Part shown: positions 1 through 64,000 of the stretch, in pieces
Numbering within the stretch: position 1 is the stretch's first letter
How the letters are laid out: each line of letters starts with the position of its first letter
NCBI RefSeq assembly: GCF_963921235.1
Contig: NC_086097.1
Coordinates: forward strand, 152,460,001-152,524,000
Direction: 5' to 3'
DNA length: 64,000 bases
From: Mobula hypostoma
Taxonomy: Eukaryota
Notes under the pieces: model-generated
Databases searched by the model: none
The model's input: only the letters and a program-made list of their open reading frames with translations
What the model was told of the DNA's origin: nothing
Position numbers and translations under genes: made by a program

Positions 1-846
1 TCTTCTCACCCTATCTCTTGCAAAAACGCCATCCCCTTCTCGCAATTCCTCCGTCTCCGCCGCATCTGCTCTCAGGATGAAGCTTTTCATTCTAGGACGA
101 GGGAGATGTCTTCCTTTTTTAAAGAAAGGGGCTTCCCTTCCTCCACTATCAACTCTGCTCTTAAACGCATCTCCCCCATTTCATGTACATCTGCTCTCAC
201 TCCATCCTCCCGCCACCCCACTAGGAATAGGGTTCCCCTGGTCCTCACCTACCACCCCACCAGCCTCCGGGTCCAACATATTATTCTCCGTAACTTCCGC
301 CACCTCCAACGGGGTCCCACCACTAAGCACATCTTTCCCTCCCCCTCTCTCTCTGCATTCCGCAGGGATCGCTCCCTACACAACTCCCTTGTCCATTCGT
401 CCCCCCCATCCCTCCCCACTGATCTCCCTCCTGGCACTTATCCGTGTAAGCGGAACAAGTGCTACACATGCCCTTACACTTCCTCCCTTACCACCATTCA
501 GGGTCCCAAACAGTCCTTCCAGGTGAGGCAACACTTCACCTGTGAGTCGACTGGGGTGATATACTGCGTCCGGTGCTCCCGATGTGGCCTTTTATATATT
601 GGCGAGACCCGACGCAGACTGGGAGACCGTTTTGCTGAACATCTACGCTCTGTCCGCCAGAGAAAGCAGGATCTCCCAGTGGCCACACATTTTAATTCCA
701 CATCCCATTCCCATTCTGACATGTCTATCCACGGCCTCCTCTACTGTAAAGATGAAGCCACACTCAGGTTGGAGGAACACCTTATATTCCGTCTGGGTAG
801 CCTCCAACCTGATGGCATGAACATCGACTTCTCTAACTTCCGCTAA
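1..846 (+). CDS. C-terminal part of a Penelope-like element ORF (RT thumb, Cys-rich linker, GIY-YIG endonuclease); 5' part lies outside the window
   Basis: Frame is open from base 1 (SSHPISCKNAIPFSQFLRLRRICS...) to TAA at 844-846. Contains linker CKRNKCYTC and GIY-YIG motif GVIYCVRCSRCGLLYIGETRRRLGDRFAEH, and ends ...LGSLQPDGMNIDFSNFR. The Cys-rich linker suggests the Neptune group (inference). Confidence 0.9.
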   Translation, partial: SSHPISCKNAIPFSQFLRLRRICSQDEAFHSRTREMSSFFKERGFPSSTINSALKRISPISCTSALTPSSRHPTRNRVPLVLTYHPTSLRVQHIILRNFRHLQRGPTTKHIFPSPSLSAFRRDRSLHNSLVHSSPPSLPTDLPPGTYPCKRNKCYTCPYTSSLTTIQGPKQSFQVRQHFTCESTGVIYCVRCSRCGLLYIGETRRRLGDRFAEHLRSVRQRKQDLPVATHFNSTSHSHSDMSIHGLLYCKDEATLRLEEHLIFRLGSLQPDGMNIDFSNFR

Positions 847-1145
847 GGCCCCACCTCCCCCTCGTACCCCATCTGTTACTTATTTTTATGCACACATTCT
901 TTCTCTCACTCTCCTTTTTCTCCCTCTGTCCCTCTGAATATACCTCTTGCCCATCCTCTGGGTCCCCCCCCCCACCTCCTTGTCTTTCTTCCCGGACCTC
1001 CTGTCCCATGATCTTCTTGTATCCCCTTTTGCCTATCACCTGTCCAGGTCTTGGCTCTATCCCTCCCCCTCCTGTCTTCTCCTATCATTTTGCATCTCCC
1101 CCTCCCCCTCCAGCTTTCAAATCCCTTACTCACTCTTCCTTCAGT

Positions 1146-1183
1146 TAGTCCTGACGAAGGGTCTCGGCCTGAAACGTCGACTG
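1146..1183 (+). ncRNA. Minimal type-I hammerhead ribozyme in PLE 3' end
   Basis: TAGTC-CTGACGA-AGGGTCTCGGCCT-GAAA-CGTC-GACTG. Core CUGANGA at 1151-1157, stem II hairpin, GAAA at 1171-1174, palindromic ACGT stem III, GUC cleavage triplet at 1176-1178, stem I TAGTC/GACTG. Confidence 0.85.
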
Positions 1184-2289
1184 CGCCTCTTCCTATAGAT
1201 GCTGCTTGGCCTGCTGCGTTCACCAGCAACTTTGATGTGAGTTGTCAGAGTGTGTATAGTTACAGCAAACACTAGTTGCCAGCTTATCCTAAGAAACAAC
1301 AATTGATATATTGAGCAGAGTAAGGGCTGTGTGAAGGCAAGGAGGGATTTGTAGAAATTGGAAACACATTTGAAGACTGGTTTGTTAACCTCTTCACTGA
1401 TACAACAGGAAAAAGAGACCATTATAAAAATATCCTGCTCAAACTTCAATGACCACACCAGCTAAAAGTGAACTACTGGAACTGTTTCCCTTTTCCAGAG
1501 TTAGGGTAGATTCCAGATATTCAAATGTGCGTCCAGCTGTATTTGAATCCACTGAGGGCTTCTACCTCCACAGCCTTTACATCCAATGAGTTTAAGCTCC
1601 TTACCAGTTACTGGATAAAATGTTTTTATGAAAAACACTTTAAGACAAATAATTTTCTCCTGTTCAGTTTTATGTATCACATTGAAATCTTGGCTCATGT
1701 GCAGTATTCAGAATAAAACAGACCCTAGTCTAGAATGCTCCAATCCTGCAAACAGTCTTACCTACATATTCTGTAGCGTGGTTCTGGAAACATATTCAAT
1801 ACTTCAGCTGGGTCTTAGCTAGTTTTCAACTGTATACTTGCATTACATTTGCATTCTTATCCACTTTATCCACCTCACAGAGAAGTGAGGAAGGAGACCT
1901 GTAAGAATGGAATGAAGAATATTCCTCCATTAGCTTTGGGCTGACTCACTGAACAGAGCTAGCAATCTTGTCACAACTTCCATTCTAGGGAATTCAAGAT
2001 AAGACGTTGCCTGAAAATTGTTGCACAGTGACCCACTTGTCCACATTTGCAATTATCTCAGCAGGTTCAATTTATTACACTCTAGGGAGTCATCCCATTA
2101 GTAAAAAGAAGACTTTGGAAGCTGTGACTTTTAATGGGTATGTTCCAAACCAGTATATGTATTACCTGAAAGTTATCTAATCTGCTAGCAAGTGAGATTT
2201 TCTTCATCATTTGTCTTTTAGTTGCCTTTGAACTACTTAAGAGTCCTTGTGCAATACTCCCAGAAAATTAATTTACAGGTTGAAATATT

Positions 2290-10155: not shown

Positions 10156-10300
10156 AATTCAGCCCAGGGCTCCCACTGATTCAGCGATATTGGCGCGTTG
10201 CAAAGATTTTATATGTTCATATGAGGAAAATATACGCTGTATGTTTAATATCCAAATGTTACTTAAAATGTTATAATGCTATTGACTTATAAGTGACTTA

Positions 10301-10502
10301 TGTAACCATATAACAATTACAGCATGGATACAGGACATCTCTACCCTTCTATTCCGTGCCGAACGCTACTCTCACCTCGTTCCACCGACCTGCACTCAGC
10401 CCATAACCCTCCATTCCTTTCCTGTCCATATAGCTGTCCAGTTTAACTTTAAATGATAATATCGAACCTGCCTCTAAAACTTCTACTGGAAGTTCGTTCA
10501 AC
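10301..10502 (-). mobile_element. About 200-bp CR1 3' end inside the hAT element
   Basis: Closely similar to 15182-15384 (TAACCATATAACAATTACAGCA...CTTCTxCTGGAAG); possible ACTTA TSD at 10296-10300 and 10503-10507. Confidence 0.85.
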
Positions 10503-10965
10503 ACTTACTTCAAGCTCCCCTGTCCTCCCCTGATAATTGACTTATCACTATAATCATGCGAGGAAAATATGCACTGTGTGTTTAATATTAAATTTGTTAG
10601 ATAAACCCTTTGAGAAACGTAATTGAGTGTATTAGCCACTTATCACCTATATTCTGTTCGTGATTAACACCCGCCCCCCCAAACAGAATTGCCAAAAACG
10701 ATTTGCAAAAAAGAAATCGGCATGTGCACGCATGCGCACAGGTTCCCACATAAGGCTTCATGGTCATTGTAGTCTTTCTCGGGGTAAACATAATGTATTT
10801 GACTGCTATTCTTGTCTGTTGGCAACCATATCCTCCCCCCCACCACCACCACCACTGGTCGGCCGGTCCGCAAGAATATTGTCAATATGAAACCGGTCCG
10901 CAGTGCAAAAAAGGTTGGGGACCCCTGCTCTACAGTGCATCTATAGAAGTTTTTGAGTGTATTTG

Positions 10966-11469
10966 TTAATATACCAAACTCCTAATGAAGTATAGTTGCT
11001 GTCGTGCCTTCTTTAAAACTGCATCGATATGTTGGCACCATGTTAGGTCCTCAGAGATCTTGACACCCAGGAACTTGAAACTGCTCAAACTGTCCACTTC
11101 CGATCCCTCTATGTGGATTGGTATGTGTTCCTTTGTCTTACCCTTCCTGAAGTCCACAATGAGCTCTTTCATCTTCCTGACATTGAGGGCAAGGTTGTTG
11201 CTGCGACACCACTCCACTAGTCGGTATATCTCACTCCTGTACGCTCTCTCATCACCACCTGAGATTCCACCAACAATGGTTGTATCATCAGCAAATTTAT
11301 AGATGGTATTTGAGCTATGCCTAGCCACACAGTCATGGGTATAGAGAGAGTAGAGCAGTGGGCTAAGCACACACCCCTGAGGTGCACTAGTGTTGATCGA
11401 CAGTGAGGAGGAGATGTTATCACCAATCCTCAAGATTGTGATCTTCCAGTTAGGAAGTCGAGGATTCAA
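10966..11469 (-). pseudogene. Rex1/Babar-like reverse transcriptase fragment
   Basis: APQGCVLSPLLYSLYTHDC...KFADDTTIVG...WCRSNNLALNVRKMKELIVDFRK. Confidence 0.85.
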
Positions 11470-11804
11470 TTGAAGAGGGAGGTACAGAGGCCCAGGTTCT
11501 GCAACGTCTCAATCAGGATGGTGGGAATGATGCTATTAAATGCTGATCTCTAGTTGATGAACAGCATCCAATATAGGTGTTTGTATTCATTCCCAAGCCC
11601 ACATTTATAATTACCTTTTTTACACACAAATTCCATTAGAGTGATTTTTTTTATTCTATATCTCAAAATGTTTGGAAATAAATTGTGAATTCTGAAAAGA
11701 TGATTTTCCGTTAACTGAACTGCTGTAACATAGGGTTAACTTTGTATATCATAAATACATACTCACTCCAGGCTGCGGAATATTCTTCCGAGTTTCTGTA
11801 CCTT

Positions 11805-12385: not shown

Positions 12386-13357
12386 GACATAATCAGGCAT
12401 AAATCAGATTAACCACTGCATGGTCAATAACAGTAGGTCCTCAAAGTCATATAGTCAAGGAACCATAGATTTGTATGGCACAGGAAATGGTCCTTCAGCT
12501 ATCCACGGCGACCATCTACACTAGGGATAGTAGTTGATGGTATGAGGAGGTTGACTACATGATTGCATGATGGCATAAGGAGGAAACACAAAATCTTTCA
12601 GTATGTGGCTAAGATAAAGGCAGTAAATTAGGAAGAGATTCATGTAGAGTATAAACATCAAGACAGACTATTTGGCTAAGTAGTTTTATGGTCTTTATTA
12701 TATATTGTGTACAATTAGCTGGCTTCATTCTCTATCAATAGAATAATTTGGTAAGATCTGCTGTTTTTAATAATAGGAAAATATTCATGCTCAATTATAA
12801 AAAGTGCTACTCATTGACAATGCAAATCTACTGTGAGACCAAGCAAACAAAAAATAATCCAGATGGCATTAACATTCATGGAATAACATTAGAATAAGAC
12901 CTTGGAGCAGTGCCTGTTGAAATTTCTTCATGACCTTTCCAACAACTCCCTGTTGCATTCTGACTTCTGCTAACTCTCCATCCATGTTGACTCCTATTTT
13001 TTTTAAAAAGCTGGAACAGTTGCACTTGTATCATTAAAGCAGTGATCCAGGGTATACGTCCAGAGTGAAATAATGCACTCTGCAAAGGGTGGAGGTGGGA
13101 TGGTGGTGTGTCGATGGGAGCCTTCTGGTCGAATTGTAAATGTCTTGCGGCCCAGTGGAATTATTTATTCTTGAAGTTTTCCAATACAAACAATAAATTT
13201 TGCATTTAAATGTTAGCAATCCTTTCCCATTCAGCTCAATCTCTCTAAGTACTCAGTTATTTTATGGTACAGTGGCTCAGAAATTCTAGTATGCATCTTG
13301 ATAGCTATGTGGGCTATGTAATATAATTTTTAAAGAAAACTATGAAAATCTATGATA

Positions 13358-13787
13358 GCAACACACATCAAAGTTGCTGGTGAACGCAGCAGGCCAGGCA
13401 GCATCTCTAGGAAGAGGTACAGTCGACGTTTCAGGCCGAGACCCTTCGTCAGGACTAACTGAAGGAAGAGTTAGTGAGAGATTTGAAAGTGGGAGGGGGA
13501 GGGGGAGATCCAAAATGATAGGAGAAGACAGGAGGGGGAGGGATGGAGCCAAGAGCTGGACAGGTGATTGGCAAAGGGGATATGAGAGGATCATGGGACA
13601 GGAGGCCCAGGGAGAAGGAAAAGGGGGGGGGACCCAGAGGATGGGCAAGGGGTATAGTCAGAGAGACAGAGGGAGAAAAAGGAGAGTGAGAGAAAGAAAG
13701 TGTGTATAAAAATAAATAACGGATGGGGTACGAGGGGGAGGTGGGGCATTAGCGGAAGTTAGCAGAATTCCTCTTGTTTGCGTTTTT
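13358..13787 (-). mobile_element. Non-coding PLE 3'-end insertion (inverted 3' UTR plus short forward tail)
   Basis: About 13360-13762 is the reverse complement of about 832-1240; 13762-13782 GCAGAATTCCTCTTGTTTGCG is a forward tail piece; 13-bp TSD AAAATCTATGATA at 13345-13357 and 13788-13800. Confidence 0.9.
13420..13457 (-). ncRNA. Minimal type-I hammerhead ribozyme, intact core
   Basis: Reverse complement is identical to 1146-1183. Confidence 0.85.
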
Positions 13788-13842
13788 AAAATCTATGATA
13801 TTCTTTCTGGGTCTTTGGTATGCAGGTCCAAGAAAAGGTGCT

Positions 13843-14900
13843 TTAGAACATCGAACATAGAACAGTGCAGTACAGTACATGATGTTATGCTAACTCCCTA
13901 ACCTACTCCAAAATCAATCTCACAATTTCCGCTCACATAGCCCTCCATTTTTTTTATCCTTGCACCTACTTAAGAGTCTTTTATATATATCCTTCATATA
14001 CTTCCTCTACAACCACCCCTAGCAGTGCATTCTTTACACTTTCTATGTAAAAAAAAACTACCTCGGACATCTTCCCTATAACTTTCCTCCAATCACCTTG
14101 TATTAGTCATTGTTGCCCTGTGAAAAAGTCACTGGAGATCCACTCTCTATATGCCTCTTATCTTCTTACGCACCTCTGTCAAGTCACCTCTCATCCTCAT
14201 TCATTCAAAAGTGAAAAGACCTAGTTTGCTCAAACTATCCTCATGAGGCATATTCTCTAATCCAAGCAGCATCCTGGTAAATCTCTTCTGCACCTTCTCT
14301 AATGCTTCCACATCCTTCCTATAATGAGACAATAAGAACTAAACGCAACACTCCAAGTGCAGTCTGAACAGCATTTTTTAGAACTGTAATATCGTCTCAT
14401 GGCTATTGAATTCAACCCACCAACTATTGAAAGCAAAAACACTAGACATTTATTTAGCTACCTTATCAACAGGAGAAGCAACTTTGAGGGATCTATGGAT
14501 GTGGACCCTTGGAACCCTCTGTTCCTCCACACTGCTAAGAATCCTGCCAGTAACCTTGTACTCTACCTGCAGCTTTGACCTATCAATACTTCGCACTTCT
14601 GCATTGATTTTATCTGCCACTTCTCAGCCCAGCTCTGCATCCAGTCAATGTCCCATTGTTAAATATTACAATCTTCTACACCCTTCACAGCACCATTAAT
14701 CTTTGTGCCATATGCAAACTTACTAACCCACCCTCCCTCTTCCTCGTACAATATAGTATAAAGAGTAGGGGCCCCAGAGAAGACCCCTGTGGAACATTAC
14801 TAGTCACCAACCTCCAGGCAGAATATGCTCCCTCTATTACCGTCCTCTGCCGTCTGTGAGCAAGCCAATCCTGAAACCACATGGCCAAGATTCCCTGAAT
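13843..14900 (-). mobile_element. Decayed CR1-type LINE with internal deletions
   Basis: WFQDWLAHRRQRTVIEGAYSAWRLVTSNVPQGSSLGPLLF; (TTCTATG)-like tail at about 13843-13863. Confidence 0.8.
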
Positions 14901-14949: not shown

Positions 14950-15173
14950 CCCCTCTCCCACCTGGCTTAATCTGTCTAAAAATATTTTCCTTATCTGTTT
15001 CTTATCACCTATCAACCATTGTCTCTACACTCCCTTCTACCCTTCTCTCACCTGGTTTCACCTGCCCATCATCTCTCACCTCACCTGATTCCATCTATCA
15101 CCTACTGTCTCTTGTCACTCCATTCCCTCTCCTGATACTAGCTCTCTTTCTTCTGCACTCTCAGTTCTGATTA
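14950..15173 (+). mobile_element. Old PLE 3' UTR relic, left part (continues at 16811-16918)
   Basis: Pyrimidine-rich segment with CTATCACCT and CAGTTCTGAT, resembling 1030-1157. Confidence 0.55.
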
Positions 15174-16810
15174 TAACCATATAACCATATAACAATTACA
15201 GCACGGAAACAGGCCATCTCGGCCCTTCTAGTACGTGCCGAACTCTTACCCTATCCTATTCCCATCGACCTGCACTCAGCCCATAACCTTCCATTCCTTT
15301 CCTGTCCAGATATCTATCCAATTTAACTTTAAACGACAACATCGAACCTGCCTCAACCACTTCTGCTGGAAGCTCATTCCACACAGCTACCACTCTCTGA
15401 GTAAAGAAGTTCCCTCTCATGTTACCCCTAAACTTTTGTCCTCTAATTCTCAACCCATGCCCTCTTGTTTGAATCTTCCCCACTCTCAATGGAAAAAGCC
15501 GATTAACGTCAACTCTATCAATCCCCCTCATAATTTTGAACACCTCTACCAAGTCTCCCCTCAACCTTCTACACTCCAAAGAATAAAGACCTAACTTGTT
15601 CAACCTTTCTCTGTAACTTAGGAGATGAAACCCAGGCAACATTTTAGTAAACCTCCTCTGTACTCTCTCAATTTTATTGACATCCTTCCTATAATTTGGT
15701 GACCAGAACTGAGCACAATACTCCAGATTTGGCTTTACCAATGCCTTATACAAATTCAACATTACATCCCAACTCCTATACTCTATGCTCTGATTAATAA
15801 AGGTCAGCAAACCAAAAACTTTCTTCACCACCCTATCCACATGAGATTCCATCTTCAGGGAACTATGTACCATTATTCCTAGATCCCTCTGTTCTAAAGC
15901 ATTCTTTAATGCCCTACCATTTACCATGTATGTCCTATTTTGATTAGTTCTACCAAAATGTAGCACCTCACATTTTTCGGCATTAAACTCCATCTGCTAT
16001 CTTTCAGTGCACTCTTCTATCTGTCCTAAATCTCTCTGCAAGCTTTGAAAACCTACCTCATAATCCACAACACCACCTATCTTAGTATCATCTGCATACT
16101 TACTATTCCAATTTACCACCCCATCATCTAGATCATTAATATATATTACAAACAACATTGGACCCAGTACAGATCCTTGAGGCACACCACTGCACACCGT
16201 CTTCTAATCTGACGCGCAGTTATCCACCACTGCTCTCCGGCGTCTCCCATCTAGCCACTGCTGAATCCATTTTACTACTTCCATATTAGTGCCTAACGAT
16301 TGAACCTTCCTAACTAACCTTCCGTGTGGAACCTTGTTAGAGGCCTTACTGAAGTCCATATAGACAACATCCACTGTTTTACCCTCGTCAACTTTCTTAG
16401 TAACCTCATCAAAAAATTCGATAAGATTTGTCAAACATGACCTTCCACACACAAATCCATGTTGACTGTTCCTAATCAGACCTTGTCTATCCAGAAAATT
16501 ATATATACCATCTCTAAGGATACTTTCCATCAATTTACCCACCACTGACGTCAAACTCACAGGCCGATAATTGCCAGGTTTACTCTTAGAACCCTTTTTA
16601 AACAAAGGAACCACATGAGCAATACGCCAATCCTCCGGCACCATTCCCGTTTCTAATGACATTTGAAATATTTCTGTCAGAGCCCCTGTTATTTCTACAC
16701 TAACTTCCCTCAAAGTCCTAGGGAATATCTTGTCCGGACCTGGAGACTTATCCACTTTTATATTCCTTAAAAGTGTCAGTACTTCCTCTTCTTTAATTGT
16801 CATACTTTCC
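15174..16810 (-). mobile_element. Relatively young 5'-truncated CR1 (HER1-like) LINE; RT to 3' end with few disruptions
   Basis: ORFs 16204-16812 (KSPGPD, GNYRPVSLTS, QHGF, VYMDFSKA), 15997-16197 ([16 protein letters not shown]) and 15256-15993; (TATGGTTA)n tail; ATTA at both junctions. Confidence 0.95.
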
Positions 16811-16918
16811 ATTAAGGGTCTTGATGCTGTAACATTGACTACATCTTTGCTTTCACGGATGCTGATTGACCTGTTGATTGCTCCAGTAGCTTTGCTCCAT
16901 GTTCCAGCATCTGCAGTT
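16811..16918 (+). mobile_element. Old PLE 3' end relic, right part
   Basis: AAGGGTCTTG...AACATTGACT...GATGCTG...TTCCAGCATCTGCAG is colinear with 32500-32608. Confidence 0.65.
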
Positions 16919-23666: not shown

Positions 23667-24257
23667 TGTAGGAGTTGAGTATAGGAGTTGGGATGTAATG
23701 TTGAATTTGTATAAGGCATTGGTAAAGCCAAGTCTGGAGTATTGTGTACAATTCTGGTCACCGAATTATAGGAAGGATGACAATAAAATTGAGAGAATAC
23801 AGAGGAGGTTTACTGAAATGTTGCCTGGGTTTCATCTCCTAAGTTACAAAGAAAGGTTGAACAAGTTAGGTCTTTATTCTTTGGAGCGTGGAAGGTTGAG
23901 GGGAGACTTGATAGAGTTGACGTGGTTAGACTTTTTCCATTGAGAGTGGGGAAGATTCAAACAAGAGGGCATGGGTTCAGAATTAGAGGACAAAAGTTTA
24001 GGGGTAACATGAGGGGGAACTTCTTTACTCAGAGAGTGGTAGCTGTGTGGAATGAGCTTCCAGCAGAAGTGGTTGAGGCAGGTTCGATGTTGTCGTTTAA
24101 AGTTAAATTGGATAGATATCTGGACAGGAAAGGAATAGAGGGTTATGGGCTGAGTGCAGGTCGGTGGGAGTAGGATAGGGTAAGAGTTCAGCACAGACTA
24201 GAAGGGCCGAGATGACCTGTTTCCGTGCTGTAATTGTTATATGGTTATATGGTTATA
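23667..24257 (+). mobile_element. Young 5'-truncated CR1 inserted in Gypsy copy A
   Basis: Very similar to the reverse complement of 15174-15785; 7-bp TSD TCGACTG at 23660-23666 and 24258-24264. Confidence 0.93.
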
Positions 24258-25069: not shown

Positions 25070-27002
25070 GAAATTTTGAGAGTACAAAATTTGTATGTGC
25101 CAGTCATATTAAAAGGCAAATCTAACAGGTTTAGGGAACTTGGATTTAAAAGAGATATTGAGAGCCTGGTTAAGAAAAAAAAAGGAGTTGCATAGCAGGT
25201 ATAGGCAGGAACAAATGAGATACTTGAGGAGTATAAGAAATGCAAGACACACTTTAGAAAGAAATCAGGAGACCAAAAAGAAGGCATGAGGTTGCTCTAG
25301 CAGACCAGGAGAAGGGGAACCCTAAGGACAGACATGTGAAGAGCAAAAGGAATACAAGGGAAAAAATTGGTCCTCTGGAAGATCAGCATAGTGATCTATG
25401 TGTGGAGCCAAAAGAGATGCGAGAGATCTTAAATGGATTTATTGCATCTGTATTTACTTAAGAGACAGACTGGGAGTCTATAGAAGTGAAGCAGAGCAGC
25501 AGTGATGTCACAGACCCTATGCAGATTACAGAGGTGGAGATGTTTGCTGTCTTGAGGGAATTCAGAGTGAACAAATCCCCAGGGCCTGATAAGGTGTTCC
25601 CTTGGACCCTGTAGGAGGCAAATGTAGAAATTGCAGGGGCTCTAACAGAGATATTTAAATCATTCTCAGCGGCAGGTGAGGTACGAGAGGATTGCAGGAT
25701 AGCTAAAGTTACTCTGCTGCTTAAGACACTTTGAATAAACCAGGAAATTATAGGTTGGAGAATCTGACATCAGTAGTGGGAAAGTTATTGGAAAGTATTC
25801 TGAAGGACTGGATATATGAGCATTTGGATAGACAGGGAGTGATTAGGAATAGTCAGCATGGCTTTGTGCGTGTTAGGTTGTGTCTAAAAAAATCTTACAG
25901 TGTTTTTTGAGGAAGTTACCAGGAAACTGGATGAAAGCAAGGCAGTGGATGTTGTCTACATGGACTTCAGCAAGGCATTTGACAAGATCCTGCAAGGGAG
26001 GCTGGTTAGAAAGGTTCAGTTGCTTGGCATTCAGGCTGAGGTAGTTAATTGGATTAGACATTAACTTTGTTGGAGAAGTCAGAGACTGGTAGTAGAGGGT
26101 TGCCTCTCTGTCTAGAGGCCTGTGACTAGTGGAACGCCTCCAGGATTAGTGCTGGGTCTGTTGTTGTTTGTTATCTATATCAATGATCCAGTTGATAATG
26201 TGGTTAACTGAATCAGCAGATTTTTGAATGACACCAGAACTGGGGACAGAAAGGATGTCTATAAAAAGGTTGCCAGGGGGGGCTAGACCAGCTGGAAAAA
26301 TGAATTGAAAAATGACAGATGGAATTTAATGCAGGCAAGTGTGAGATGTACTTTTGGTGGCCCAGCAGGGCAGGTCTTACACAATGAGCAGCAGGGCACT
26401 GAAGAGCGTGATAGAACAAAGAGATATGGGAATTCAGGTCCATAATTCATCAAAAGTAGTGTTACAGGTAGATCGGGTTGTAAAGAAAGCTTTTGCACAT
26501 TGGCCTTCTGAAAGAGTAGAGAGAAAATCTGCAAGGATGTTGCTATTTCTAGAGGATTGAGTTATAAGGAAAGTTTGAAGAGGTTAGAACTTTATTCCCT
26601 GGAATGTGGAAGATTGAGGGGAGATTTGATAGAAGTATACAAATTTATGAGGGGTATAGACAGGGTAAATGCAAGAAGGCTATTTCCACTAAAGTTGGGT
26701 GGTACTGCAACTAGAGGCCATAGGTTAAGGGTGAAAGGTGAAAAGCGTAAGGGGAACATGAGGCAAAACTTCTTCACTTGGAGTGTTTGAGTGTGGAACA
26801 AACGAGCTGCCAGCACAAGTGGTGGATGCCTTTTCGATTTCAATGTTTGAGAAGTTAGGATAGGTACGTGGATGGGAGGGGGATGGAGGGCTGTGGTGCA
26901 GGTGCAGGTCGATGGGACTAGGCATTTAAAATGGTTTGGAATGGACTAGATGGACCAAAGGACCTGCTTCTGTGCTATAGTTCTCTATGAATCTATTCTA
27001 TG
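25070..27002 (+). mobile_element. Decayed CR1 LINE (tether, RT, 3' end) with an internal deletion near 26510
   Basis: AAATCCCCAGGGCCTGAT (KSPGPD), QHGF, VYMDFSKAFDK, SYKESLKRLELYSLECGRLRGDLIEVYKFMRG. Confidence 0.9.
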
Positions 27003-31182: not shown

Positions 31183-31274
31183 AGAAATGCCTCAGCCCGA
31201 AACGTCGACTGTTTCTCGATTTCCATCGAGGCTGCCTGGTCTACTGAGTTCCTCCAGTATTTTATGTGTGTTGC
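31183..31274 (+). mobile_element. Short PLE 3'-end fragment with the 3' half of the hammerhead
   Basis: CTCAGCCCGAAACGTCGACTG...GCTGCCTGG...TGTGTGTTGC; imperfect flanking repeat AAAAGGTAATAA / AAAAGTAATAA. Confidence 0.75.
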
Positions 31275-32029: not shown

Positions 32030-32660
32030 TGTGTCGATAGTCAGAGGCTTTTTCCCAGGGCTGAAATGGCTAGCATAAGAGGGCATAGTTTTAAGGTGCT
32101 TGGAAGTAGGTACAGAGGAGATGTTAGGGGTAAATTTTTTTCACAGAGAGTGATGAGTGTGTGGAATGGGCTGCTGGCAGTGGTGCTGGAGTCGGAAATG
32201 ATAGGGTCTTTTAAGAGACTCCTGGATGGATACATGGAGCTTAGAAAAATAGACGGCTATGGGTAAGCCTAGGTAGTTCTAAGGTAAAGGATCTATTCGG
32301 CACAGCTTTGTGGGCCGAAGGGCCTGTATTGTGCTACACACACAAAATGCTGGTGGAATGCAGCAGACCAGGCAGCACCTATAGGAAGAAATACAGTTGA
32401 CGTTTTGGGCCGAGACTTTTCATTAGGACTAACTGAAAGAAGAGATAGTAAGACCACTTTCAAATCTCTTACTATCTCTTCTTTCAGTTAGTCCTGACAA
32501 AGGGTCTCGGCCCAAAACATCGACTGTACTTCTTCCTATAGATGCTGCCTGGCCTGCTGCGTTCCACCAGCACTTTGTGTGTGTTGCTTGAATTTCCAGC
32601 ATCTGCAGATGTCCTCGTGTTTGCTGTATTGTGCTGTAGGTTTTCTATGTTTCCATGTTC
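32030..32660 (+). mobile_element. CR1 3' fragment, interrupted by the PLE fold-back element
   Basis: DSQRLFPRAEMASIRGHSFKVLGSRYRGDVRGKFFSQRV...; tail TTTCTATGTTTCCATGTTCC. Confidence 0.9.
32336..32623. mobile_element. 288-bp PLE-derived fold-back element with two decayed hammerheads
   Basis: Inverted arms 32336-32453 and 32467-32584, 13-nt spacer, tail to 32623; 12-bp TSD CTGTATTGTGCT at 32324-32335 and 32624-32635. Confidence 0.92.
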
Positions 32661-36699: not shown

Positions 36700-39600
36700 T
36701 GCTCTTTCCCACAAACTGCAGTAGAGGTTGTTGAGAGCTTTTAGTTGTTAGTAATAAATATCATTAATATCTTGCCTTGATTCAACCACATAGACACCAT
36801 AGCCAACAAAGCACACAATTAATTCTACTACCTCAGAAGATTAAGAAAATAACTCAGTGTTCCTGATAGACCATAAGACATAGGAGCAGAATTAGGCCAT
36901 TCAACCCATTGTGTCTGCTCCACCATTCCATGATGGTTGATCATCAGTCAACCCATACATCTGCCTTGTTGCCATATCCTTTGATGCCCTGACCAATCAG
37001 GAAACTAAAAATATTTCCTTCTTACCTCTGTTCCAAAAGGTCACCCCTCAATTTTGAGGATGTGCTCTTTACTTCAGGATATCCCCACCACAGGAAACTT
37101 CCTTTCCACATTCACTCTATCTAGTCCTTCCAACATTGGGTAGGTAAAATGAGATCCCTCACATTCTTCTAAATTCCAGTGCCTGACAAGTCTCTCATAA
37201 AGCCTCAGCATTATCTCCTTGCTTTTATATTCTATTCCCATTGAAATAAATGCCAACATAGCATTTGTCTTCTTTACAACAGACTCAACCTGTAAATTAA
37301 CCTTCTGGGAGTCTTGTACGAGGACTCTGAAGCCACTTTGCACTTCTGATGTTTGTACTTTCTCCCCATTTTGGTAATAGTTGACACTATTGTTCCTCTT
37401 ACTGAAATGCATTCTCATATATTTCTCAGCACTGTATTCCATCTGCCACTTTTTGTCCGTTCTTCCAATTTGTCTGTCCTGCTGCAATTGCATCACATCC
37501 TCAGCACTACCAACCCCTCCACCTATCTTTGTATCATCTTCAAACTTTGCCACAAAGCCATCAATTCTATTATCTAAATCACTTAAAAACAAAGTGTAAA
37601 GTAGTGGTCCCAATACTGACCCATGAGGAGCACCACTCGTCACTGGTAGCCAACCAGAAAAGCCCTTCTTTATTCCCACTCACTGTCTCCTGCCTGACAG
37701 CTATTCCTCTATCCATGCCAGTATCTTTCCTGTAACACCATAGGATTTAATCTTGTTAAGCAGCCTCATGTGTGGCACCTTATATAATTCCTTGCAAAAA
37801 TCCAAGTAAATAAAATCCACTACCTCTACTTTGTCCACCCTACTTGTTACTTCCTTGAAGAACTCTAACAGATTTGTCAGGCAAAACTTCCCTTCACAGA
37901 AGCAATGTTGAATTTGACATATTTTATCATCAATCTCCAAATACCCCAAAATCTCATCCTTAATAATAGACTTCAACACTTTCCCAACTACTGAGGTTAG
38001 GCTAATTGGCCTATAATTTCCTTTCTTTTCCATTCCTCCCTTCTTAAAGAGTGCAGTGATATTTGCAATCTTCTAGTCCTCTGGGACCATCAAATGATTC
38101 TTGAAAGATCATGTCCAATGCATCCGTTATCTCTTCAGCAACCTCTCTCAGGATTCTGGAATGTAAGCCATCTGGTCTGGGTGACTTATCCACCTTAAGA
38201 CCTTTGAGTTTGCCTAGAAGATTTTCTTTTGAAATAGCAATGGCACTCACTCCTGCTTCCTGACAATCATGGACCTCTGGCACTCTGCTAGTTCTGTCCA
38301 CAGTGAAGACAGATGAAAAGTACTCCTTAGATAGCTTTTCCCTCATTACTACCTCACCAACATCATTTTCCAGTGGTCCAATATCAACTTTTTCACTTCA
38401 TATAATTAAAAAATACTTTGGTTATCCTGCTTTATATTATTGGCTAGTTTGCCCTCCTATTTCATTTTTTCCCTTCTCGTAGCTTTTATGGTTGCCTTTT
38501 GTTAGAATTTAAAAGCTTCCCAATCATCCAACTTCCCACTCACTTTTGCTACTTTATATGCCTTTTCCTTGGCTTTTATATGGTCCTGAACTTTCTTTGG
38601 CAGCCATGGTTGCCTACCGCTGCTATCTGAGAACTTCTTCTTCTTCTGTAGGACATATCTATCCTGCGCTTTGTGAACTATTCCCGGAAACTTCAGCCAT
38701 CTCTGCTCTGCCATCATTCCTGCCAATATCCTCCTCCAATCCAACTGGGCAAGCTCTTCTCTCATGTCTCTGTAATTCCCTTTATTCCATCGTGATACTG
38801 ATACTTGTGACTTATGCTTCTCCCTATCAAGTTGCAGTATGCTCATATTATGATCATTGTCTCCTAAGGGTTCCTTTACATTAAGCTCCCTAATAAGATC
38901 TGGGTTATTACATAAGATAGCTTTTCCTTGAGTAGGCTCAAACACAAGCTGCTCTACAAAGCCATCTCATAGGTACTCAACAAATTCCCTCTCTTACAAT
39001 TTGGCACCAACCAGATTTTTCAATCCTCTTGTTTATTGTGGTCCCTCATTACAAGTGTGCCTGACATGCCTTTTCCAGCTCCCTTTGCAATCTCAACCCC
39101 ACACACTGGCTATTACTTGAAGGCTTATATATGATTCCCATAGCTTTTTTTTAACCCTTGTCGTTTCTTAACTCAACCCACAAAGATTCAGCATTCTCTG
39201 ACCTTATGTCACCTCTTTCTAAAGATGTAATTCCATCTCTTACTAACAGAGCCACCCCACTGCTTATGCCTTCCTGCTTGTCCTTTCGATACAAAATATA
39301 TCCTTTGATGTTAATCTCCCAACTGTGGCCTTCTTTCAGCCACAATACAGTGATGACCACAACGTCATACCAACTAATCTCTAATTGTGCCTCGAATTCA
39401 TCCACCTTATTTGGAGTGCTACACACTTTTAAATACAGCACCTTCCATCCTGCATTCTTCACCCTTTTGAATTTTGACTCTGTGGTATATTTTAACTCTT
39501 TGCTCTATCTGCATTCGTACCCAATCATTGGCTTGTCCTTCCTTACATTCATGTTACACCCATCACCCACCTGAGGATGCTAGTGCATCCTCAGTTCTCT

Positions 39601-42965: not shown

Positions 42966-43749
42966 TCATGAACAACATTGAATTGTTTGATTTGTCATTC
43001 CATGAACAGAGTTCCGATTAATGAAAAGGAACTTGTCCGCCCCGTGCTGGAGGTGCTCTTCATCATTCTTGCCGGTCACAATGATATCATCAAGAAAATA
43101 TTCCGCTCGTGGGATATCTTGGTGTACATGGTCCATTGTCCTTTGCCAAACTGCTAAAGCTGATGCGACACCGAAGATGAAATGATTACAGTGGAACAGT
43201 CTCTTGTGAGTGTTGATTGTGAGGAACTTACTGCTTGACTCTTCAATCTCATTTGCAGATAGACTTGTGACAATCAGTCTTTGAAAATCTCTCCCCACCT
43301 GCCAAAGATGGAAATACATCTTCTATTCATGGCAGGGGATACTGCACAGCATGCAGCACAGTGTTGATGCTTACTTTGAAGTCTCTGCATATGTGAACAG
43401 CTCCGGCATTTCCTTTCTTAAATACCAGGATAATGTGCATGGCCCAATCACTCCATTCAACCTTGGAAAGAATATCAGATGCCTCCAAGCTCTTCAGTAC
43501 AACATCCACTTTAAAAAGTGGTGTGTAAGGCACTGGATGCGCATCATGGAAATTTAGTGTTGCCGCTTCATCCAGTTCAATTCTGACCTTCACGCCTTTG
43601 AGTTTACCTATCCCCTTCTCAAACATCTTTTCGTTAGCATTAAGCAATTGTGCTGGTCTCTGGTTAATGCTACCAGTTGGGTTGCAGTTGCCTACTGATG
43701 ACACATTGTGAGCTTTGATTGCTTGCTGGTCTAGTTGGATTTTTCTCAA
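42966..43749 (-). pseudogene. Gypsy RT remnants fused to an integrase C-terminal remnant
   Basis: VEWSDWA...VHICRDFKVSIN...QYPLP; LTINTHKRLF...FGVASA...YFLDDIIVTGKNDEEHLQ joined directly to DKFLFINRNSVHGMTNQT. Confidence 0.85.
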
Positions 43750-57019: not shown

Positions 57020-57118
57020 ACTGTTGGAGGAACTGCTGGAGGAACTCAATAGGTCAAGCAGCATCTGTGGAGGCAAAGGGGTGGTTGATGTTTCCGGGCA
57101 AGATCCTGTTTCAGGACC
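57020..57118 (-). mobile_element. Decayed PLE 3'-end/hammerhead relic
   Basis: Minus strand GGTC-CTGAAAC-AGGATCTTGCCCG-GAAACATC-AACC...AGATGCTGCTTGACCTATTGAGTTCCTCCAGCA. Confidence 0.6.
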
Positions 57119-60944: not shown

Positions 60945-63075
60945 AAATGTAGGTAAGCTGATTAATATGTCTGCAAGTGACACTATTATTGGACATAATT
61001 GTGGACAGTGAGAAAGGTTGTCATAGGATTTAACTGTATATTGTTCAGATGGAAATGTGCGTAAAAAAAAAGGAAGATGACATTAGGAGCATTGGGAGTA
61101 TCAATGTACCAATGGATACTGGGATGCAAGTCCATAACTATTTGAAAGTGGTTACATTAGTAAAGAAAAAAGCATGCAGAATACTTGTCTTCATTGGTCA
61201 GGGTGCTGAATATAAAATTGAAAATTCAGGTTCTGCTATATAAAACTGTTGTCAGGTCATCTTTGGAATATTGTATGCCTAGCAGGAAGGATGTGGAGAC
61301 TTTGGAGAGGGTGCAGAATAGGTTGACAAAGATGTTTCCTGGATTAAAGAGTATTACCTATAAGAAGAGGTTAGATGAAATTGGCTTCTTTTTCTGGAGA
61401 TCTGAAGGCTGTGAGGATACCTGATAGAAATATATAAAATCATGAGAAGTATAGTTAAAGTCAGCATGGTTTTTGTAAAAGGAAATCTTGCCTGATGAAC
61501 CTGTTAGAATTCTTTGAGGAAGTAACAAGCAGTGTGGACAAAGGAGAATTTTGGAAGGCATTTGACAAGGTGCCTCACATGAGGCTGCTTAACAAGATAA
61601 ATCGTATGGTGTTTCAGGAGATATACTGGCATGGATAGATAAATGGTTGACAGGCAGGAGGCAGAAAATGGGAATTAAGAGGGCCTTTTCTGGTTGGCTG
61701 CCAGTTACTGGTGGTGTTCCTCAGAGGTCAGCATTGGGACTGCTACTTTTCATCTTGTTTGTCAATGATTTAGATAATGGAATTGATGGCTTTGGGGCAA
61801 AGTTTGTAGATGATACAAAGATAGGTGGAGGGATAGGTAGTGCTGTGGAAGCAAAGTGTGTCGTCAGGGGAGATGGAAGATCTATGGCTGTGTGTCCAGG
61901 GACCCGAGATCTTTGGGCACAGAGCTCGAAAACAGTGATGTAATGGACTTTTAACATTGTAAAGCAGTGACTTGTTTGTTATGACTCCCCCCTCACTATG
62001 AAACAGAGACATCTCTTTCTCCCTTAGTATGTCGAATACCAGGTGAACAAGTAGTTTTTGGAGTATTGCAAGTCTGTGTCTTTACTGTTGCTTTTCTCCT
62101 GCTCGAGTGCTCTGTGGCGAGTGCTGATGCTTTTTTTTTAACCAGTGGGGGAAGGAAGTTGTTGCTTGCTGCTACCTTCGCATGGGAGAGAGAGGAGTTG
62201 GGGGGACTTTAGGGTTCTAACATTTAATTGTCATTCATTCTTTGGGGCACTCCTCTGTTTTTGTTGATGGTTGTGAAGAAAAAGCATTTCAGGACATATA
62301 TTGTATACATTTCTCTGACATTAAATGTACTTTTGAAACCTATCGAATGTTGAAAGGACTAGATAAGGTGGATGTGGAGATGATGTTTCCTCTGGTGGGG
62401 GTATCCAGAACTAGTGGACACAGCATCAAAAACGAGGGGTGACCTTATAGAACAGAAATAAGGAAGACATTTTTTTTGTCAAAAGTCGTGAATCTGTGGA
62501 ATGTTCTGCCACAGACTATGGTGGAAGCCATGACTGTGAGTATATTCAAAGTGGAAGTTGATAGTTTTCTGATTGGTCAGGGCATCAAGGGATATGGTGA
62601 GAGGGCAGATGAATGGGGTTGAATGGGATCCAGGATCTGCCATGATTAAATGGCAGAGCAGTCTCGATGGGCTGAATGGCCTAATTCTGTTCCTATGTCT
62701 TGTGCTTCTATGGTCTTATAGTCGTAGATGGGTAAATAATGAAAGTATTTTTCCCATGATGAAAATGTCAGATAATAGAGGGATAGAGGGCCAAACTTTT
62801 AGATGAGAAGGAGAAAATTTAAAAACGATTCATATGACAAGTTCTTTACATGGAGTTTGACAGGTGCCTGAAATGTATTCTCAGGGGAAGTGGTAGAAGC
62901 AGATATGATAGCAACATTCAAGAGGAATTTAGGCAGGCACATGAGCAGGCAATGACATAGACCATGTGAAGGTGAGTAGGACTAGTCTGAATTGGCATTA
63001 TGGTCAGCACAGATAATGTGTGTGAATGGCAATGTTCGTATCTGGTGCTCTTCTGTTTTCCATGTCCTATGTTCT
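60945..63075 (+). mobile_element. Nested cluster: old CR1 (about 60945-61455 and 62723-63075) containing a CR1 (about 61456-62718), which contains a non-LTR 3' fragment (about 61856-62338)
   Basis: Outer LERVQNRLTKMFPGLKSITYKKRL resumes after 62722; inner FSGWLPVTGGVPQ...KFVDDTKIGGG; TATAGT at both junctions of the inner CR1. Confidence 0.75.
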
Positions 63076-63324
63076 ATAAGGCAACCTGTTTCCTGTTCAG
63101 AAATCCATACTAGAAATATCAAAGTGCAAACATTCATCGAGAGTGGGATTATTTAAAATGGACAGTGGAACTATAAGAAGTGCAGTCAACCATTAGATTC
63201 CATGGCAGAATAAAGATATTTATTTGAAATGGTGGAATAACTGCAATTCCAGCAATCTGTTATATTTAATATTCTTCCCTGGTGGATACTGATCTTTTTG
63301 TTGATCTCCACATGAATGCTGGAA

Positions 63325-63640
63325 AGAATGGTAGCATTGTGGTTAGCACAATTACATTACAGCACCAGCAGCACCCAGAGCTCAATTCCTATTACTGTCT
63401 GTAAGGAGTTTTACCTACTCCCCGTGATGGCATGGTTTTTCTCCAAGTGCTCTGGTTTCCTCGTACATTACTCACATATATAGTTGGTGTTGGTGGGTTG
63501 TGGGCTTGCTGTGTTAGCACTGGAACTGTGGTGACACTTGTTGGCTGCCCCCCCAGAACAATGGACCATGTTGATTGATGATGGAAAATGATGTATTTCA
63601 CTGACTGTTTCAATGTATGTGTGAAAAATAAAACTAATCA
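63325..63640 (+). mobile_element. Decayed tRNA-derived V-SINE-like element
   Basis: TAGCATTGTGGTTAG, CTCAATTCC, GTGCTCTGGTTTCCTC. Confidence 0.65.
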
Positions 63641-64000
63641 TTTAAAAACAATATCAGCTTTTTTAAAGTGGCTTTCCAGGTGAAATTTTGCAACATTAAG
63701 AAAAAAGGTTTGCATTTATGATGTTCGCTGCTTTTAAATTGTAAGGCTTCCAAGGCACAATATCAGAGGTGGAAGTTAGATTTATCGAAACTCATTAACA
63801 TCCTCTTATTTCAAAGTGTCTGACTATCAGTAAAACTTCCTTGAAACAGTCTGCAGTACTGTATTGAAATACGGCGATCCATAAGCATTTAACAGCGTCT
63901 TTCTGACCTAGGTAAGTCAATAGATATTCTATTTTGAGAGCCATATTTCATTTATACTCTGTTATGGCACACTTAATGGGTTGTGTTAATGCTATAACGA

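Follow-up and report, generated by a model that had tools for sequence, protein, structure and literature searches.

Among PLEs, an inverted, 5'-truncated copy beside the 5' end and a tail of 30–40 bp that is often one-sided are described as standard in the available text of Craig et al. 2021 (PMC8557442). Arkhipova et al. 2013 (PMC3846280) reported inverted pLTR units with a 31-bp tail and TSDs of 8–10 bp, one of which was verified by an empty allele, and D. virilis Penelope is most often found with inverted terminal repeats (PMC2377424). The formation of such tandem and inverted structures is called unresolved in the accessible portions of two of the sources (PMC8557442, PMC11167929). The insertion at 13345–13800 of the window (the whole stretch of 64,000 nucleotides analysed here) resembles the insertions in these publications in having a tail at one end only, in lying as a unit within a short TSD, in carrying a hammerhead in the pLTR and in having a parent ORF of the GIY-YIG type. 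Unlike them, its forward part (26 nt) is shorter than the tail, so there is neither arm overlap nor an inverted repeat; in the published examples, as far as these sources describe them, the forward part is a full pLTR or ORF. It belongs to the already known inverted-plus-tail class of PLE insertions, at the limit of a short forward arm, and its value is that of a limiting case validated by an empty site, in which both fixed PLE ends occur in opposite orientation, in one event and without overlap. Neither a forward arm shorter than the tail nor an explicit twin-priming model for PLEs was found in the literature covered, a weak absence, as few subscription journals were included.

The closest biochemical system is the Poseidon PLE of Anolis carolinensis (Frangieh et al. 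2024, PMC11167929). In the available text of that study, the purified protein nicks and extends both target strands, starts reverse transcription at two internal sites that delimit a tail of 30–40 bp, favours AT-rich targets containing ATT and takes as its template unprocessed RNA, uncut at the hammerhead; inverted insertions are not explicitly modelled in that portion. The present locus is similar in its two fixed ends about 37 nt apart, its AT-rich target, its hammerhead-uncut template and the apparent extension of both target strands. It differs from Poseidon in that the parent has a CX2-5CxxC linker and in that the starts lie at the 3' foot of weak, GU-rich hairpins rather than at an AC-rich loop. 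A further likeness is to L1 5' inversion by twin priming, in which, according to the part of Kojima 2010 (PMC2912911) available, an inverted upstream segment and a forward 3' segment meet at junction microhomology within a TSD. Non-overlapping arms and junction microhomology within one TSD were found here too, a correspondence of mechanism and not of L1 membership: the enzyme is a GIY-YIG/PLE RT instead of an APE/L1 RT, poly(A) is absent, and the second priming takes place at a fixed position of the family, not at a chance match within the element.

Minimal type-I hammerheads of metazoan PLEs, as presented in the available text of Cervera and De la Pena 2014 (PMC4209133), share with the motif studied here a conserved core, a helix I of 4–5 bp, an extra nucleotide before helix II and palindromic positions replacing helix III, and they are mostly solitary and tied to truncated PLEs. 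The motif here differs in its short helix II (3–4 bp) with G10.1–U11.1. According to the same source, a single minimal motif shows no cleavage and dimers show low cleavage, and opposite-strand hammerhead pairs 100–700 bp apart are already on record. Non-LTR retrozymes are tandem by definition, with at least two hammerhead units (bioRxiv 10.64898/2026.07.22.740005, in the text available), in contrast to the single unit of the present insert, which has one motif and no tandem array at the locus.

Anatomy of the insertion and its empty site

The insertion and the two copies used as comparators comprise the following features.

13345–13357, plus strand: left TSD copy (sequence match; one copy in empty-site contigs)
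13358–13762, minus strand: inverted 5'-truncated arm, ending at the proximal (tail-less) terminus (92.3% identity to 833–1245)
13419–13457, minus strand: minimal type-I hammerhead motif (hand match of the core to the published description)
13762, no strand: inner inversion junction, shared G (template alignment of both arms)
13762–13782, plus strand: forward arm, distal 21 nt of the PLE tail of about 37 nt (match to the tail of the 32336 element)
13783–13787, plus strand: T5, insertion-derived, by template continuation or untemplated (absent from the X19 empty-site contig)
13788–13800, plus strand: right TSD copy (sequence match; empty-site contigs)
1–1245, plus strand: parent element in forward orientation, truncated where the window begins (comparator)
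32324–32635, no strand: fold-back insertion, called the 32336 element, with inverted arm 32336–32453 and forward arm 32454–32624 (comparator)

The 13-bp TSD, AAAATCTATGATA, is exact at both positions and not extendable. It occurs only twice in the 64 kb with both strands searched, and the chance of such a match within ±50 nt, given the base composition, is about 8e-6. The insert between the TSD copies measures 430 nt. Its inverted arm (405 nt) aligned to 833–1245 with 374 matches, 31 mismatches and 8 gap columns, the 92.3% identity referring to ungapped columns, and contains the last 14 nt of the GIY-YIG ORF (a partial Ser, Asn, Phe, Arg and the stop), the 3' UTR/pLTR and the minimal hammerhead. 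The forward arm amounts to 26 nt with the shared G13762 counted in; it is made up of the 21-mer, which has 4 mismatches in 21 to 32605–32625, and of the T5 that separates it from the right TSD and is missing in the empty site.

On the template, the arms neither overlap nor abut. The forward arm starts 17 nt downstream of the proximal site, and the 17 template nt missing between the arms correspond to 32588–32604 on the 32336 copy. At the inner junction, G13762 is common to both arms (a 1-nt microhomology or, alternatively, an imperfect 5-of-6 match); this junction (13762/13763) is assembly-based, with no bridging contig among those listed. At the left junction, A13357 matches the template base after the proximal site, again over 1 nt. 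The target site is 75% AT, and an ATT spans the right TSD edge.

In line with the preliminary description, the 13-bp TSD was confirmed, an inverted arm of roughly 400 bp was recovered on the minus strand, and the hammerhead described as identical to another copy is a 38-mer of 1146–1183 that recurs exactly at 13420–13457 (minus). Two of its terms needed adjustment: the forward tail of about 21 nt was confirmed as the 21-mer, to which the T5 has to be added, and the insertion is non-coding almost wholly, except for the 14 nt of ORF in the inverted arm.

Holders of the locus were identified by a run search, in which the share was 0.80–0.86 for organism A, possibly the assembly's own sample, about 0.5 for B, 0.22 for G and 0.21 for H. 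Four of the 23 listed runs, with one sample per organism and a share of at least 0.2, were aligned to 12600–14160: X2 (A), X5 (B), X19 (G) and X20 (H). In X19, letters 1–512 of a 960-nt contig (contig 2) corresponded to 12849–13344 and letters 513–880 to 13788–14160, with a single TSD copy and with the arm, the tail and the T5 all absent. A 971-nt contig of X20 (contig 17) aligned to 12768–13353 and 13804–14137 with 6 letters between the two blocks, compared to 7 predicted for an empty site. Contigs from X2 and X5 covered 12600–13379 and 13763–14160 and crossed both outer junctions. The flanks differed by 0.1% in A, 2.0% in B, 5.9% in G and 7.4% in H.

The empty-site comparison that the preliminary description had proposed as a check was thus carried out, and in G and H the site holds one TSD copy and no tail; the refuting result named in that description, an empty site already carrying the 21-nt tail or both TSD copies, did not appear. 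The stretch 13345–13800 is a genuine TSD-forming PLE insertion. Since the site is empty in G and H and both outer junctions are present in A and B, the insertion postdates the split from G/H and predates the split between A and B, as seen in one sample per organism.

Parent element and recurrent ends

The parent copy at 1–1245 consists of the C-terminal part of an ORF (1–846), followed by the 3' UTR with the hammerhead and a tail-less end at about 1244. Bases 1–843 are an open frame of 281 aa (P0001), in which a Pfam match to GIY-YIG was obtained (E 1.3e-5; 25.9 bits vs. a cut-off of 22.6). The CCHH residues C192, C195, H214 and H230 were invariant in 9 aligned proteins, and residues 149–157 form a CX4CxxC linker motif. 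The copy in the window is truncated at base 1; 33 longer homologues were found, many with the RT domain PF00078. Two of the 33 are named, both of them shark proteins, one matching the full query at 63% identity and the other 48% of it at 61%, which makes a cartilaginous fish the probable host. The alignment also showed that the ORF at 1–846 has one residue missing near the conserved endonuclease Glu relative to the homologues.

An inverted 5'-truncated copy within a short TSD and with a single-copy empty site is a property of EN+ PLEs, and their optional one-end tail was likewise found, as a 37-nt tail at 32588–32624 alongside tail-less ends. In the available definitions of PMC8557442, CX2-5CxxC in the RT-EN linker marks the Neptune and Nematis clades. 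On these definitions, and by its linker motif, the parent is classified from its translated sequence as a putative Neptune/Nematis-type, endonuclease-bearing PLE. Membership of the Penelope/Poseidon clade was rejected because the Cys linker is present and that clade lacks such a linker. The family is highly abundant, with 79,766 contigs aligned in X2.

On the forward arm of the 32336 element, the proximal site is position 32587, from which the full 37-nt tail runs to 32624. The window has six family segments, four of which terminate no more than about 3 nt from the proximal site: two forward copies (at about 1244 and about 31274) and, by their outer ends, both inverted arms (13358 and 32333–32336). 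As for the other two, one runs through the 37-nt tail and the diverged segment 57031–57117 (71% identity) stops earlier. TSD searches for the 31191 and 57031 copies yielded only candidates of 6–7 bp, which were not relied on. Tail-only insertions were sought in the window and none was found beyond the two known tails; three matches to the 5' half of the tail with 4 edits were taken as chance. The proximal and the distal fixed end each fall at the 3' foot of a weak hairpin (-4.2 and -2.9 kcal/mol), a correspondence that is suggestive only. We also observed that the forward arm 13762–13782 coincides exactly with the weak terminal hairpin of the tail (-2.9 kcal/mol), and that the ends of 13358–13377 and 13762–13782 both finish in a similar TTGC motif.

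The preliminary description had regarded the insertion as sharing its architecture with the 32336 element, and both inverted arms indeed begin at the same template position. The latter element has a 12-bp TSD (32324–32335 and 32624–32635), an overlap of about 117 nt between its arms when these are placed on the template, and an inner junction without a shared base. Between the two arms, 12 of 115 aligned positions are different, and neither hammerhead core is free of mutations; on these grounds the element looks older than the 13345 insertion or derived from two RNAs.

The hammerhead of the inverted arm

The hammerhead at 13419–13457 (minus strand) was called by matching the core by hand to the published description of minimal HHRs. 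It is composed of a 5-bp stem I, CUGACGA, an extra A, a stem II of 3–4 bp and GAAA, with a palindromic ACGU replacing helix III. The CUGANGA and GAAA..UH core, helices I and II and the palindromic 15/16 positions of the minimal type-I class were all found; position 11.1 is U, which gives G10.1–U11.1 instead of the conserved G–C. The cut is predicted between 13425 and 13424. Rfam returned no hammerhead family match in the whole window at E<=1; the four matches that it did return are miRNA-type hairpins below gathering scores, three of them on the 32413–32508 palindrome, and were rejected as chance. Exact-pattern hammerhead scans gave 0 loci in collections of viral, metagenome and prokaryote genomes, as expected for an animal repeat.

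Free folding of pieces of 13358–13470 yielded z-scores from 0.05 to 1.16, which lend no support to a stable monomer, and the hammerhead was not the minimum-free-energy fold of the monomer. By analogy with the published minimal motifs, the hammerhead is expected to be dimer-dependent. At 92% identity between the inverted arm and the parent copy, the longest identical run has P ~0.30 and the specific 38-mer P ~0.04, so that the identity of the motif to 1146–1183 is not clearly beyond chance. Further, the inverted arm spans the cut site, and its template must therefore have been uncut or re-ligated. The view of a design that delivers an intact ribozyme, put forward in the preliminary description, is not supported, given the missing monomeric helix III, the G10.1–U11.1 pair, reverse transcription through the cut site and an identity not clearly beyond chance. 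Judged from the sequence, the hammerhead looks like a passenger of the pLTR, with no sign of selection or of purposeful delivery, and the locus gives no indication of a new ribozyme-delivery system.

Other copies of the family in X2 and X5 showed go-back joints, from 13452–13460 to 13418–13426, 13383–13388, 13366 and 13358, as well as one from 13396 to 13357 with tail letters in between. These joints are head-to-tail partial tandems elsewhere in the genome, some extending little beyond the hammerhead core, and could supply the hammerhead with a dimer partner. Hundreds of contigs, in all four runs, diverged at 13454–13456, the 5' edge of stem I, which suggests other subfamilies or short units that share the hammerhead-to-end segment alone. 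The copies at 31191–31274 and 57031–57117 resemble such hammerhead-to-end-only units.

Formation of the insertion and its surroundings

Taken as a whole, the explanation that we favour, at a probability of about 0.7, is that two-ended target-primed reverse transcription made the insertion, leaving a dead copy in a single dead-on-arrival integration. The GIY-YIG domain would nick both strands of an AT-rich site 13 nt apart. On the top strand, the 3'-OH after 13357 would act as primer at the proximal RT start on the element RNA, giving a cDNA that runs 405 nt upstream, passes the uncut hammerhead and barely enters the ORF. On the bottom strand, the 3'-OH at 13788 would prime at the distal start, the end of the tail of about 37 nt, and synthesis of this second cDNA would halt after some 26 nt, leaving 17 nt between it and the proximal start. 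The ends of the two cDNAs would then be joined at the 1-nt microhomology, either by host end-joining or by an RT template jump, and fill-in would yield the TSD. Directly observed are the anatomy of the insertion, its TSD and empty site, the proximal end that it shares with other copies, and the gap of 17 nt; to these we add by inference the two priming events, their order, the use of one RNA and the transfer of Poseidon biochemistry to this clade. The sequence by itself is compatible with either strand as the first to be primed and with either route of joining the cDNAs.

Several points weigh against this two-ended scheme. It draws on two inverted insertions (n=2), both from the window. Its biochemistry comes from the Poseidon clade, and the parent carries a linker of the Neptune/Nematis type. 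In the published work the RT start is worded as an AC-rich stem-loop, in contrast to the two present starts with their GU-rich sense strand. At the left junction, primer and template would have paired over just 1 nt. Lastly, the arm overlap of the 32336 element (about 117 nt) is less easily explained by one RNA, such overlapping arms needing either two RNAs or the re-use of one.

A stronger version, which we hold only tentatively and consider rather doubtful, is that the inverted-plus-tail architecture of PLEs reflects programmed twin priming by a dimeric protein with two hard-wired starts on one RNA. An arm that stops within the tail would then record a collision of the distal RT with the proximal complex, and the gap of about 17 nt would recur. 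If this were true, later steps of PLE integration that are as yet unvalidated could be read from genomes. The material for doing so would be the present family of Neptune type, which occurs in very many copies, has been active recently and has empty sites in close relatives that can be dated.

The preliminary description had proposed priming at the tail followed by a polarity switch. In this scheme, the bottom nick primes at the tail, the RT jumps about 26 nt later to a cDNA or an antisense RNA, whose polarity is opposite, and follows this template past the hammerhead as far as the proximal site; the end so made is attached to the other target end. The final sequence would be identical, the 1-nt match at the inner junction fits a template jump, and such jumping is accepted for R2-type RTs (PMC2912911, in the available text). 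However, the template jumped to must end exactly at the proximal site, like the tail-less forward copies ending at 1244 and 31274; a cDNA begun at that site would then have to pre-exist, and the model folds into two initiation events. It is also at odds with the direct extension of both target strands by the purified PLE protein (PMC11167929, in the portion available). We therefore consider a single primer improbable, as the proximal end fits a second priming site better, and retain from the proposal a template jump as a possible joining step in the two-ended scheme. A genome-wide junction table for this PLE family could test twin priming against template switching.

Two further explanations appear very unlikely. 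In the first, a pre-formed non-autonomous unit of inverted arm and tail was transcribed and retroposed whole, in the manner of a SINE or a retrozyme, spreading the ribozyme. Such a unit would accord with the extreme abundance of the family (the 79,766 X2 contigs) and with the PLE-derived non-autonomous hammerhead elements described in the available part of bioRxiv 10.64898/2026.07.22.740005; it is opposed by the different inner junctions and arm lengths of the two inverted copies in the window, by the summed X2 contig depth, a rough measure, which is 1.9 million on one side of the inner junction and drops to 14.5 thousand on the other, by 97 X2 contigs that run on from 13762 into the ORF and not the tail, and by the presence of one hammerhead in the insert rather than tandem units. 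In the second, a forward, 5'-truncated, tailed copy was later inverted at the DNA level with a loss of 17 nt, or two independent insertions occurred at one site. Nothing direct speaks for this beyond the limited sampling of four runs, in which no intermediate state was covered. Against it, a single breakpoint would need to coincide precisely with the TSD edge as well as the proximal terminus, a coincidence repeated in the 32336 element; the entire unit lies within one perfect TSD; and the same two outer junctions occur in organisms A and B.

Least credible of all is a hammerhead that is functional here or maintained by selection acting on a host transcript of the minus strand. In its favour, no position of the catalytic core is lacking and the 38-mer is the same as 1146–1183 (P ~0.04). 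Against it, monomeric helix III is absent and single minimal HHRs are uncleaved in vitro (PMC4209133, in the text available), the best monomer fold differs from the hammerhead, the longest identical run does not exceed what chance allows (P 0.30), and Pfam detected no host exon among 450 of the 466 window frames.

This Pfam search covered stop-to-stop frames of at least 50 aa, a threshold at which short exons would be missed, the remaining 16 frames lying at 61999–63947. Its matches were limited to GIY-YIG, LINE-type RT fragments and two sub-threshold matches; a sub-threshold match to Trm112p over 13716–13898 was rejected. The four LINE-type RT fragments are all on the minus strand (10969–11508, 16000–16917, 37077–38072 and 42969–43322), which possibly reflects an orientation bias from an unseen host gene, or chance. 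Finally, a 612-bp repeat is present as a pair in opposite orientation (15172–15783 and 23677–24257; 91% identity), with diverged copies at 10300–10504 and 26560–26982, and these repeats are probably LINE 3' ends.
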